Origin: Patescibacteria group bacterium
GTDB taxonomy: Bacteria > Patescibacteriota > Minisyncoccia > CAIUEV01 > JAHKAQ01
Assembly (NCBI GenBank): GCA_018825765.1
Contig: JAHKAQ010000083.1
Span: 1-27,246 of the forward strand
Direction of reading: 5' to 3'
Length of the DNA stretch: 27,246 nt
Of the stretch, positions 1-8,031 are shown piece by piece (position 1 is the stretch's first letter; the number at the start of each line of letters is the position of its first letter). Both the position numbers and the translations under genes were made by a program. The notes under the pieces were generated by a model. It worked only from the letters and a program-made list of their open reading frames with translations, ran no database searches and was not told the origin of the DNA.

Positions 1-205
<205 letters not shown>

Positions 206-989
206 AAACAATTGCTACTTCCTACCGTAAGGTAGGATGACAATCCGACTAATAACGGTGAAGCCTTCATTATTTATCTGGCTTTATGAAAAAAGCTTTA
301 TTTACGGTCCATTATAGCTTTGATATATTCAACTCAGGCCAGAAAAATATTAAGGTAATACCGTGGGAAGTTGTTCTAAAATTGATTTAGCGTATATTGC
401 TGGTTTTTTAGATGGCGACGGGAGTTTAATGATACAAATCAAAAAAAGAAACGATAGTAAAAAATATCGTTTCATGCTAACTATTTGTATGTATCAAAAT
501 ACTCGTCACGAAAAACCTTTGTTTTGGATAAAAAATAAACTTGGAATCGGTTATATTAGTAAACGCAATGATAATATTACCGAATTAAGAATCAACGGGT
601 ATAATCAAGTCAAAAAAATATTGACACTACTGATACCTTTTATCAAGTTCAAAAAAATTCAAGCCAAAACATTAATAGAATCAGCAAAATTACTCGAAAA
701 GAAAGAGTTAAAAAAAGCTGACTATCTAAAATTAGTCAATTACATAACTCTAGTTCAATCGACAAATTACACGGCTCGAAAAAAACGAACCAAACAGGAA
801 TTATTTCAAATTTTAGAATTAACCCCGTAACGACTTTATTCCACAATAATATTGGAATAGGATAGTGATAGAAAGAGCAGTTAAGAATGAAAACAAAAAC
901 AATCACTATAATACGTCGGCTCCTGTTTTTTCAAATTTTTAACAGGATGAAGATATAGTCTATACTCCTAGAAATAGGGGACATACGTG
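206..989 (+). mobile_element. Group I self-splicing intron (subgroup IA-like, with P7.1/P7.2), 784 nt, inserted after U2656 of 23S rRNA
   Basis: Removing 206-989 restores CTAGT|ACGAGAGGACC. The 5' exon ends in U and the intron ends in G989. Helices found by eye: P1 UAGU(202-205)/GCUA(214-217) with the U.G pair; P2 ccuacc-GUAA-gguagg (221-236); P3 ccgac(245-249)/gucgg(915-919); P4 acggug(255-260)/uaccgu(359-364); P5 gccuu(263-267)/aaggu(352-356); P6 ggg(365-367)/ccc(824-826); P7 gacu(832-835)/aguc(957-960); P7.1 837-859; P7.2 862-909; P8 921-947; S element AAGAUAUAGUC (950-960); P9 cuccua-GAAA-uagggg (965-980). Confidence 0.96.
363..830 (+). CDS. Intron-encoded single-motif LAGLIDADG homing endonuclease (I-CreI-like, presumably homodimeric), in loop L6
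   Basis: LAYIAGFLDGDGSL motif, followed by I-CreI-like YQ, LGIGYI and LIPFIKFKKIQA segments; 155 aa. GTG 363 is the only canonical start between the in-frame TAA at 351-353 and the motif. Confidence 0.93.
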   Translation: MGSCSKIDLAYIAGFLDGDGSLMIQIKKRNDSKKYRFMLTICMYQNTRHEKPLFWIKNKLGIGYISKRNDNITELRINGYNQVKKILTLLIPFIKFKKIQAKTLIESAKLLEKKELKKADYLKLVNYITLVQSTNYTARKKRTKQELFQILELTP

Positions 990-1215
990 ACGAGAGGACC
1001 GGGGTGAACCGACCTCTGGTGTACCAGCTGTTCCTGCCAAGGGCAACGCTGGGTAGCTATAGTCGGGTGTGGATAAGCGCTGAAAGCATATAAGCGCGAA
1101 GCCCAACCCAAGATTAGGTTTAGATCTCCTCAAAGACTATGAGGTTGATAGGACGCAGGTGTAAGAACAGTAATGTTTTCTAGCCGAGCGTTACTAATAG
1201 ATCGTTACCGCTTTT
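990..1215 (+). rRNA. rrl: 23S rRNA, 3' exon (about E. coli 2657 to the 3' end; end approximate)
   Basis: ACGAGAGGACCGG (SRL 3' half), GGATAAGCGCTGAAAGCATATAAGCGCGAAGCC (H97), GTTGATAGG, GGTGTAAG...GTAAT (H101), TACTAATAGATCG. The mature 3' end is uncertain by a few nt. Confidence 0.95.
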
Positions 1216-1265
1216 TGAATGGTTTTTAGCTAATTTATGAAATTTAGCCCGATAATATAACTTTT

Positions 1266-1295
1266 ACAAAAAAGCCCGCGCGCGGGCTTTTTTGT
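1266..1295. terminator. Intrinsic (probably bidirectional) terminator ending the rRNA transcript
   Basis: ACAAAAAAGCCCGCG|CGCGGGCTTTTTTGT: GC stem flanked by A6 and T6 tracts, about 50 nt after the 23S 3' end. Confidence 0.85.
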
Positions 1296-1310
1296 TTTGT
1301 TTTTTCCTTT

Positions 1311-1339
1311 TTGCCTTAAATTTTTATTCGCACTATAAT
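1311..1339 (+). promoter_or_regulatory. Sigma70-type promoter for the htrA-antiporter-gltX-ileS-recO run
   Basis: TTGCCT (1311-1316), 17-bp spacer, TATAAT (1334-1339), just after the terminator. Confidence 0.7.
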
Positions 1340-1401
1340 AACTCATATGCTTTTTACCATTTTTTTCACCTGACAAAAATCAGCTTAATTCTCAAAAACC
1401 A

Positions 1402-5100: not shown

Positions 5101-8031
5101 ATGTTCAAACCCGTTGACCCTCGCCAGGACCTAAATCAGCTGGAAAAAGACATTCTAGAATCCTGGAAGGAAAACAAAACCTTTGAGCGCTCCATTCAAA
5201 ACCGCCGCGCCGCGCCGGTTTACAGTTTTTTCGACGGCCCTCCGTTCGCCACCGGCGTGCCTCACTTTGGCACTCTTCTCTCATCAGTGGCCAAAGACGT
5301 GATTCCCCGCTACTGGACCATGAAAGGCTTTCGCGTTGACCGCCGTTGGGGTTGGGATTGCCATGGCCTCCCGGCCGAACACCTGGTTGAAAAAAAACTC
5401 GGCATCAACTCCAAAAATGAAATCGAAAACAAAATCGGCATTGAAAAATTCAATAAAGAATGTTGCGAAACAGTAAACCAAATGGCCGACGAATGGGAAA
5501 TCCTAATCGACCGCGTCGGCCGCTGGGTTGATTACAAAAACGCTTACCGCACCATGGATAAAGAATACATGGAATCTGTCTGGTGGGCTTTCAAAGAGCT
5601 ATACCAAAAAGACCTGATCTATGAAGACGTGCGCATTTCTCTTTATTGCCCGCGCTGTGAAACGCCGCTGGCCAATTTCGAAATCGCCATGGACAACAGC
5701 TACCAGGAAGTAAGCGACCCTTCAGTTTTTGTTAAATTTAAAATAACCGACGGCTCTTTCAGGGAAAACACCTTGCTTGTCTGGACCACTACCCCCTGGA
5801 CCTTGCCGGCCAATACCGCTTTAGCCGTGGGCCAGGATATAACTTATGTTCGTATAAAAACCGACAAACGGGAAACCTTGATTATCGCCAAAGACAGACT
5901 CGATGAATTAAAAAGCAAACACGCGGTGTTAGAGGAAATAAAAGGCAGCGACCTAAAAGGCGCCTCTTACAGTCCTCCTTTCCCTGAATTTGCGGCCAAA
6001 GGAGGCAAAACCAAACATCTTCATAAAATCTGGACCGCGGATTTCGTCTCTACCCAGGAAGGTTCCGGTATTGTGCACATCGCTCCAGCTTTCGGCCAGG
6101 ACGATTTCAATCTTTCCCAGAAAAATGACATTCCAGTTATTGAAAATATCGATTCAACCGGCCGTTTTATTCAGGGAAAATGGCAGGGAAAACGCGTCTG
6201 GCAAGCTAATGCTAAAATTATTCACTACTTAAAAGAAAAAAAGATTTTATACAAAAAAAAGAATATTACTCACTCCTATCCTTTTTGCCACCGCTGTCAC
6301 ACTAAATTAATCTACAAAACCCAGCCAGCCTGGTATGTAAATATTGAAAAACTAAGAAAAAAACTTTTAGATAACAATGAGCAAATAAACTCGCAGCCTC
6401 CGCACTTAAAACACGGACGTTTTAAAAAAAGCGTTCAGGCCGCTCCTGACTGGAATATTTCCCGCGACCGCTATTGGGGCACGGCCATGCCGGTCTGGCG
6501 CTGTGATAAATGTAAAGAAATAAGGGTCATGGGTTCTTACCAGGAACTTTACGAACTAAGCGGCCAGAACCTGGAAGACTATCACCGCCCCTTTATCGAT
6601 CAAGTGGATTTTAAATGCCAGTGCGGCGGCGTCTTTAAGCGCGTCCCCCAGGTTATGGACTGCTGGTTTGAATCCGGATCCATGCCTTACGCCGAACGCC
6701 ATTATCCTTTTGAAAATCAAGAAGATTTTTCCCAAAAATTCCCCACTGACTTTATTTCCGAATACATCTCACAAACCCGCGCCTGGTTTTACGTGCTTCA
6801 CGTTTTAGCCACGGCCCTGTTTGACCAGCCCGCTTTTAAAAACGTCGTTACTACCGGAATAATCACCGGCCAGGACGGCCGTAAAATGTCAAAATCACTG
6901 GGCAACTACACTGATCCTAAAAAAATTCTGGATCAATACGGCGCCGACGCTCTGCGCTTCTATCTAATGAGTTCTCCAATCATGGAAGCCAAAAACATCA
7001 ATTTCAACGATAAGGATATCGCTGAAATCCGCCGCGGCCTTATTTCCACCTTCTGGAATTCATATTCATTTTTTGTGACTTACGCTCTGGTTGATAAATT
7101 CGACCCCAATGAACCTCAAAAAATAATCAATGAAAATTCCCAAAATATCCTGGATCGCTGGATTATTTCCGAGCTGAATTTTTTAATTAAAAAATTCCAG
7201 AAGAAAATGGATAGCTACCAAATCGCCCGGGCCGCCCGTTTAATTCCTGAATTTTGCGACAAATTATCCAACTGGTATATCCGGAGATCCCGCCGCCGCT
7301 TCTGGAAATCAAAAAATGACCAGAACAAAAAACACGCTTACGAAACTTTATGGCAAGTACTGGTAAAATTTTCCCAGGTTATGGCTCCCTTCTTACCTTT
7401 TATTTCAGAAAACGTGTATAAAAACCTGACCAGCGAAGAATCCGTGCACCTTTCTAAATTCCCCGAAGCTGACGAAAAACTTATCGACCAAAATCTGGCC
7501 AAAAACATGGAAAAAACACGAAAAACAGTAAAAATCGCCCTGGGATTAAGAGCCAGGCAGGGGATAAAAACCCGTCAACCCCTTTCCAGGCTCTGCATAA
7601 ACCAAAAAAATTTAGTGGAGGATCTGGATTTTAAGAAAATAATCCAGGACGAAGTAAACATTAAAGATCTCTATTATCTTGAAGATCAGGATTTTAAAAA
7701 GAAGGAAAATCTTATCACGGCCCAGGAGGATCAGATAATTGCCGGACTTAACCCCAAAATCACCCTGGCCTTAAAAAATGAAGGCTATGCCCGTGAAATC
7801 ATAAGAAACATCCAGGAGATGCGCCGAAAAGCTGATTTTTCAGTAGATGACCGAATAAAAATCGCCTACCAGGGCGGTAACTCCATCTTTAATGGCTTTG
7901 GCTATCTGATTGCCCGGGAAACCCTGGCCAAAGAATTAAAAATGGGTAAATTAAAAAAACCAAAAATAAAAAACAAAATAAAGCTGGAAAATAAAACCAT
8001 TATTATTGAACTGGAAAACATTAAAGCTTAA
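5101..8031 (+). CDS. ileS: Isoleucine--tRNA ligase, type 2 (eukaryote/archaea-like)
   Basis: FDGPPFATGVPHFGT, GWDCHGLP, WTTTPWTLP, WNISRDRYWG, WFESGSMPYA, KMSKS; type-2 C-terminus (EGYAREIIRNIQEMRRKADF). Confidence 0.97.
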   Translation: MFKPVDPRQDLNQLEKDILESWKENKTFERSIQNRRAAPVYSFFDGPPFATGVPHFGTLLSSVAKDVIPRYWTMKGFRVDRRWGWDCHGLPAEHLVEKKLGINSKNEIENKIGIEKFNKECCETVNQMADEWEILIDRVGRWVDYKNAYRTMDKEYMESVWWAFKELYQKDLIYEDVRISLYCPRCETPLANFEIAMDNSYQEVSDPSVFVKFKITDGSFRENTLLVWTTTPWTLPANTALAVGQDITYVRIKTDKRETLIIAKDRLDELKSKHAVLEEIKGSDLKGASYSPPFPEFAAKGGKTKHLHKIWTADFVSTQEGSGIVHIAPAFGQDDFNLSQKNDIPVIENIDSTGRFIQGKWQGKRVWQANAKIIHYLKEKKILYKKKNITHSYPFCHRCHTKLIYKTQPAWYVNIEKLRKKLLDNNEQINSQPPHLKHGRFKKSVQAAPDWNISRDRYWGTAMPVWRCDKCKEIRVMGSYQELYELSGQNLEDYHRPFIDQVDFKCQCGGVFKRVPQVMDCWFESGSMPYAERHYPFENQEDFSQKFPTDFISEYISQTRAWFYVLHVLATALFDQPAFKNVVTTGIITGQDGRKMSKSLGNYTDPKKILDQYGADALRFYLMSSPIMEAKNINFNDKDIAEIRRGLISTFWNSYSFFVTYALVDKFDPNEPQKIINENSQNILDRWIISELNFLIKKFQKKMDSYQIARAARLIPEFCDKLSNWYIRRSRRRFWKSKNDQNKKHAYETLWQVLVKFSQVMAPFLPFISENVYKNLTSEESVHLSKFPEADEKLIDQNLAKNMEKTRKTVKIALGLRARQGIKTRQPLSRLCINQKNLVEDLDFKKIIQDEVNIKDLYYLEDQDFKKKENLITAQEDQIIAGLNPKITLALKNEGYAREIIRNIQEMRRKADFSVDDRIKIAYQGGNSIFNGFGYLIARETLAKELKMGKLKKPKIKNKIKLENKTIIIELENIKA

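Follow-up and report, generated by a model that had tools for sequence, protein, structure and literature searches.

The locus considered here raises the question of what kind of element interrupts the sarcin-ricin loop of a 23S rRNA gene in a groundwater CPR/Patescibacteria bacterium, and whether the interrupted position is a new insertion site. The window analysed was a whole contig of 27,246 bp from a MAG of 868 kb (124 contigs, 93% complete), and the features identified in it are listed in Table 1. The insert is very probably a group I intron of the mobile kind, with a core that is IA-like and an I-CreI-like LAGLIDADG gene, carried between U2656 and A2657 of the single 23S gene that could be detected.

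[quoted passage not shown] When positions 1–205 were joined to 990–1215 and aligned to the 23S rRNA of E. coli, CCTAGTACGAGAGGACCGG was restored with no gap. The E. coli reference copy contained 2903 nt compared to the standard 2904 nt, and its T2655 corresponds to the canonical U2656; the numbering was anchored on the known positions A2660 (ricin) and G2661/A2662 (sarcin). By this alignment and numbering, the 784-nt insert lies within the sarcin-ricin loop, between U2656 and A2657. The junctions read ...CACCCCTAGT(205)|AAACAATTGCTAC...ACATACGTG(989)|ACGAGAGGACCGGGG(990-), where the end of the intron may also be written CATACGTG(989). An earlier note on this DNA had described an intron splitting the loop at L2656, and both the coordinates and the split were found to be exact from the Rfam flanks and the gapless E. 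coli join.

Table 1. Features of the interrupted 23S rRNA gene and of the intron within it (window coordinates; pairing and compensatory changes refer to 14 aligned introns).
Feature	Position	Strand	Description
23S rRNA 5' exon fragment	1–205	+	approximately E. coli 2451–2656; truncated by contig start; LSU_rRNA_bacteria match and E. coli alignment
5' half of sarcin-ricin loop	up to 205	+	end of 5' exon, ...CCCCUAGU
P1	202–217	+	exon UAGU 202–205 with internal guide GCUA 214–217; U205·G214 is the splice-site wobble; paired in 14/14
Group I intron	206–989	+	784 nt, between U2656 and A2657 (L2656; position 2657 / 23IS14 in the literature)
P2 hairpin	220–237	+	UCCUACC GUAA GGUAGGA; 97% paired; double-sided compensatory changes in 7/7 pairs
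P3	245–249 with 915–919	+	5' strand CCGAC, 3' strand GUCGG; 100% paired; compensatory changes in 4/5 pairs
P4	255–259 with 360–364	+	100% paired; compensatory changes in one pair
P5	264–267 with 352–355	+	100% paired; compensatory changes in two pairs; variable extension 268–351
LAGLIDADG homing endonuclease ORF	363–830	+	155 aa, GTG start, single motif LAYIAGFLDGDGS; I-CreI/I-MsoI-like; in P6 loop
P6	365–826	+	365–367 and 370–372 with 821–826; 100% paired
P7, 5' strand	832–835	+	GACU with AGUC 957–960; within UAACGACU element, invariant in 14/14
Two peripheral hairpins	837–859, 862–909	+	between P7 and P3'; read as P7.1 and P7.2
P8 hairpin	922–946	+	CCUGUU...AACAGG
J8/7 and P7 3' strand	947–960	+	AUGAAGAUAUAGUC; Rfam-matched conserved core, near-invariant in relatives
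P9 hairpin and 3' tail	965–989	+	CUCCUA GAAA UAGGGG at 965–980, then tail to terminal G989
23S rRNA 3' exon	990–1205	+	E. coli A2657 to 3' end; LSU match and E. coli alignment
3' half of sarcin-ricin loop	from 990	+	start of 3' exon, ACGAGAGGACC

Mis-assembly is common in conserved regions of rRNA, and the first position of the window is a contig end within the 23S gene, circumstances under which an rRNA fragment might have been joined artificially to an unrelated mobile element. However, the 5' junction was crossed by Logan contigs from three studies and the 3' junction by contigs from two of these (X1 and X3), in every case with 0 differences: the X1 contig covered 136–1099, the X3 contigs covered 136–313 and 639–1099, and the X5 contig covered 136–463. 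A homologous intron was also present at exactly the same site in 13 other sampled genomes. Both boundaries are thus confirmed by independent spanning sequence, and an assembly chimera is effectively refuted, with a probability that we consider negligible.

The window contig breaks within the 23S gene at approximately E. coli position 2451, and an X1 contig extends about 166 nt past the window start. Position 2449, near this break, is a known intron hot spot, and another intron or a repeat may lie directly upstream of the window. On the other side of the gene, 5S rRNA was absent from the region 3' of the 23S end (window 1205–1400). This region contains a strong terminator-like hairpin at about 1266–1295, AAAAAGCCCGCGCGCGGGCTTTTTT, followed by a gene at 1402–2658 that was recognised by eye as encoding an HtrA-like protease. 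In four relatives (L044, L049, L081 and L087) 5S is present downstream of the 23S gene.

Searches of the MAG with the Rfam LSU, SSU and 5S models gave no other 23S pieces, no 16S and no 5S, and blastn with E. coli 23S returned the window fragment only. The MAG contains only the 3' piece of the 23S gene. A second rRNA copy could have gone unassembled in a MAG with this completeness and contig number, in which 16S, 5S and most of the 23S are missing. The intron might then be a relic that has decayed and no longer splices, residing in a secondary or dead copy, with a functional intron-less copy elsewhere in the genome. Against such a relic, the ORF is intact, as is every core helix, and the depth of the intron in X1 (53.5) matches that of the downstream flanking single-copy DNA (44.9), consistent with a single intron-bearing copy. 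The DNA runs that contained the organism gave no contig with its exon flanks and an intact loop, and CPR genomes usually have one rRNA copy (Tsurumaki et al., 2024; PMC11270868). The copy in the window is plausibly the only operon, and a decayed relic is considered very unlikely.

Architecture of the ribozyme core

The structure of the intron was derived from 14 homologous introns, those of the 13 other genomes and that of the window, which were aligned after removal of the ORFs before the helices were named. RNAalifold alone missed P7, P9 and P7.1/P7.2, and these were placed by hand. The resulting fold bears out the group I intron proposed in the earlier note, with helices P1–P9 (P3–P8 in their canonical order), a U·G pair at the 5' splice site and a terminal G. 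Across the 14 introns, 93% of the cells for the 41 named pairs (P1–P7 and P9) were paired, compared to 33–46% in a control in which the 3' partner was slid by 1–3 columns, and to 84.7 ± 0.6% in column shuffles. Double-sided compensatory changes were observed in 19 of the 41 pairs, and P1 and P3–P6 were 100% paired.

The U·G pair of P1 was kept in every copy, and the guide pairing showed a compensatory change in one relative (L015, CAGU/GCUG). The changes in P6 were from GUC/GAC to GUU/AAC and to GAUA/UAUC. The P7 strands, which would form the pseudoknot with P3, were invariant, which is consistent with a catalytic core, although no covariation bears on their pairing. In the place of P7.1 and P7.2 the relatives carry hairpins of other sequence, as judged from the alignment with the pairs not formally counted. 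The names P7.1 and P7.2 follow the convention for subgroup IA, in which hairpins at this place are typical, and the core is accordingly read as IA-like. Between P3' and J8/7, each of the 14 introns formed an end-closed hairpin with a sequence of its own. For P9 the column count gave only 57% paired, a value that is low and unreliable because of alignment gaps and an insertion in one intron (L007); compensatory variants of this helix among the relatives included UCA/UGA, ACA/UGU and UUUA/UAAA. Every one of the 14 introns in the alignment, and each of the 17 pattern matches, has a terminal G before ACGAGAGG. No convincing P10 was found at these splice sites, at best a single base pair.

The Rfam model Intron_gpI (RF00028) matched positions 857–981, spanning P8, the J8/7-P7 element GAAGAUAUAGUC and P9, with 33.9 bits and an E-value of 1.2e-6 in a search of 1101 nt. 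This score is below the gathering score of 50 bits because the core is interrupted by the ORF. In five relatives that lack an ORF, Intron_gpI likewise did not reach the gathering score at the L2656 site, and the Rfam threshold therefore cannot certify this intron family.

Endonuclease gene and removal of the intron

The intron contains an intact LAGLIDADG gene at 363–830 that was not mentioned in the earlier note. The encoded protein matched Pfam LAGLIDADG_1 (PF00961) with an E-value of 1.4e-11, and aligned over its full length with I-CreI (residues 6–151 to 6–151, E ~1e-14); I-MsoI was also matched. The catalytic motif GFxDGDGS is kept, with GFLDGDGS aligned to GFVDGDGS in the comparison with I-CreI. 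A lysine of the protein aligns within the K98 region of I-CreI (PFLKLKQKQ), and Q47 of I-CreI is replaced by arginine. In a palindrome analysis the twofold symmetry of the intron-less homing site was weak, with 6 of 11 matches at both the 2656|2657 and the 2660|2661 centres, a result that is uninformative. The homologous ORF of one relative (L003, G232:C42) contains a single in-frame TGA, which may reflect a decaying gene or an alternative genetic code in that lineage.

The reading frame is built into the fold of the intron. The GUG start codon at 363–365 is shared between the 3' strand of P4 and the first P6 strand, and P6 itself is formed by pairing of the first codons of the ORF with the last, so that the ORF constitutes the loop of P6, with its start buried within the folded core. 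All 14 copies retain this embedding of the ORF start and end in P4 and P6, with compensatory changes, and the ends of the peptide (..NTVGS.. in the upstream frame; ..TP*) are apparently conserved due to the RNA structure. It is possible, though on balance unlikely, that folding of the core and translation of the endonuclease exclude one another and so form a built-in switch between splicing, with ribosome production, and homing. If true, such a switch would be a feature that has no description for the 2657 site in the 2024 catalogue. One may also speculate that ribosome assembly in the CPR has a late checkpoint in the form of a ribozyme step at the sarcin-ricin loop.

We infer that the intron is spliced from the conserved ribozyme core, from the need for an intact loop, and from the removal of CPR rRNA insertions from transcripts reported by Brown et al., as cited by Tsurumaki et al. 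(2024; PMC11270868). This agrees with the view of the earlier note that intron removal and exon ligation would be needed for a working ribosome. The transcribed intron would fold, use a guanosine cofactor and be cut at U205·G214, after which the exons would be ligated behind the terminal G989 to restore AGUACGAGAGGA. The LAGLIDADG protein of the P6 loop would act as a homodimer and cut intron-less copies of the same rDNA site, and repair of the cut rDNA would copy the intron into it. Homing of this kind would explain why distant CPR lineages share this intron at an identical site. Judged from its sequence, the L2656 intron is well formed and probably active as a mobile element; the activity and the target of its endonuclease are likewise predictions.

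The sequencing-run searches found DNA runs containing the organism, and no RNA run with its specific exon or intron sequence. One groundwater metatranscriptome mapped to the window gave zero coverage of the intron and of the variable exon parts. Joints from 165 to 1011 and loose ends reading '...GCCCCTAGT' before position 990 were considered as evidence of splicing and rejected, as they derive from the intron-less rRNA of other organisms.

The insert could alternatively be excised, for example by RNase III, with the exons left unligated and the 23S rRNA fragmented, as is the case at other 23S sites in bacteria. IVSs that fragment the rRNA are known from bacteria that have a single rRNA copy, and are probably present at the CPR sites 23IS2 and 23IS4 (PMC11270868), and ligated exons were not seen in the RNA data searched for this organism. 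The intron nonetheless keeps a complete covarying group I core together with conserved splice-site features, which nothing other than splicing would maintain. A break at this position would also lie beside the bulged-G motif of the sarcin-ricin loop, and should inactivate the ribosome just as the sarcin cut at G2661 does. Excision with fragmentation is accordingly regarded as highly improbable, and splicing of the insert as a group I intron is the preferred reading.

Distribution of the intron and comparison with known systems

Relatives were identified by a protein search in 400 evenly sampled genomes of the phylum, which gave 13 further genomes with intact homologues of the endonuclease at 42–64% identity. 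All 13 of these genes sit in inserts that end ...G|ACGAGAGGACC and are preceded by a 5' exon ending in YAGU. Weaker homologues (35–40% identity) were located at other 23S sites, in genes adjoining an intact loop. A signature scan with one genome per species, using the 3' pattern GATATAGTC-N20-50-GACGAGAGGACC, detected the L2656 intron in at least 120 species genomes (loci), and nearly all of the matches listed were titled as CPR taxa. Of 401 genomes sampled from the phylum, 17 (about 4%) contained this pattern. A 5' splice site could be recognised by pattern in 102 of the 120 listed loci, giving intron lengths of approximately 100–900 nt. Among these listed loci the lengths peaked at 700–890 nt (68 loci, ORF-bearing by length) and at about 300–460 nt (20 loci, ORF-less by length), a two-peak spread that resembles the usual cycle of gain and loss of homing endonuclease genes.

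Three of the loci with the signature (L048, L090 and L102) are titled as MAGs of Elusimicrobiota, Gammaproteobacteria and Bacillota, and could represent mis-binned contigs or a transfer to hosts outside the CPR. A large number of the other listed matches are titled 'uncultured Ca. Saccharibacteria'; almost no introns were recorded in Saccharibacteria in the 2024 catalogue (PMC11270868). One relative (L015:88-503, G032) has another group I-like insert, located after GAGACAG at about L2593 and closely packed with its L2656 intron, from which an exon of only about 60 nt separates it. In a Ca. Parcubacteria MAG (L087:4302-7819, JAKFXG010000015.1), two tRNA matches on the minus strand, at 6063–6136 and 6159–6269, fall within the full-length 23S span given by Rfam, which suggests tRNA genes inside an insertion of a 23S gene.

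The earlier note had suggested that the insertion site might be undescribed, and this suggestion does not stand. In a survey of 348 CPR 23S genes, Tsurumaki, Sato, Saito and Kanai (2024; J Bacteriol 206:e00074-24, PMC11270868) defined the frequent insertion sites 23IS1–14, and the L2656 site is already recorded there as a frequent CPR site under the name position 2657 or 23IS14. In that catalogue, which called group I introns by an E-value cut-off, LAGLIDADG_1 proteins were predominantly encoded at positions 1917, 1931, 1952, 2593, 2604 and 2657 (23IS6–8 and 23IS12–14), and for 23IS9, -10, -11, -13 and -14 there were no earlier reports of group I introns from other bacteria (PMC11270868). The intron of the window is a new copy of this catalogued CPR class and not a new insertion site. 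An unreported site in the sarcin-ricin loop would have mattered; the site is instead a published CPR hot spot. What remains useful is an annotated example with exact splice sites, a structure supported by covariation, an IA-like core, an ORF closed by P6 and an estimate of prevalence. The window copy would be a reasonable substrate for work on the 23IS14 class by in vitro self-splicing and by cleavage of sarcin-ricin-loop DNA.

When the intron was compared with those of other organisms, the introns of the chloroplast 23S gene of Chlamydomonas reinhardtii (Cr.LSU, L2593, which encodes I-CreI) and of I-MsoI were similar in being group I introns of LSU domain V/VI. Their endonucleases are homodimeric single-motif LAGLIDADG proteins of about 155–170 aa, and the protein of the window aligns end to end with I-CreI. 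The Cr.LSU and I-MsoI introns also resemble the window intron in having the ORF in a peripheral loop, and their IA-type core would be similar to the core read here as IA-like. Cr.LSU differs in its insertion site (2593 compared to 2656), and the target sequence must differ as well; it also differs in its host, which is an organelle instead of a CPR bacterium, and the similarity between the proteins is modest (E ~1e-14). The bacterial introns known outside the CPR, in Coxiella (L1917/L1951) and in Thermotoga and Simkania (L1931), likewise interrupt essential and often single-copy 23S genes, but occupy other sites, none of which is in the sarcin-ricin loop. For the intron of Simkania, the title of reference 28 in PMC11270868 reports that it remains unspliced.

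Among the CPR introns, that of I-ShaI from Ca. Shapirobacteria is also a group I-like intron in a 23S gene and encodes a single-domain LAGLIDADG_1 protein. I-ShaI cuts its own insertion site and dimerises, and is the only CPR rRNA-intron endonuclease that has been tested biochemically (PMC11270868). It differs in its site, 23IS7 compared to 23IS14, and in that the enzyme of the window is predicted from sequence. The 23IS14 class itself shares its host group, insertion point, intron type and single-domain LAGLIDADG_1 gene with the intron described here. The published description of this class (PMC11270868) contains no secondary structure, subgroup or ORF placement, whereas the present intron is read as having an IA-like core with P7.1 and P7.2, and has its ORF in L6, with the start in P4'/P6. 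The conserved embedding of the start and ends of the endonuclease gene in P4 and P6 is the only mildly novel angle of the locus, and may be worth keeping.
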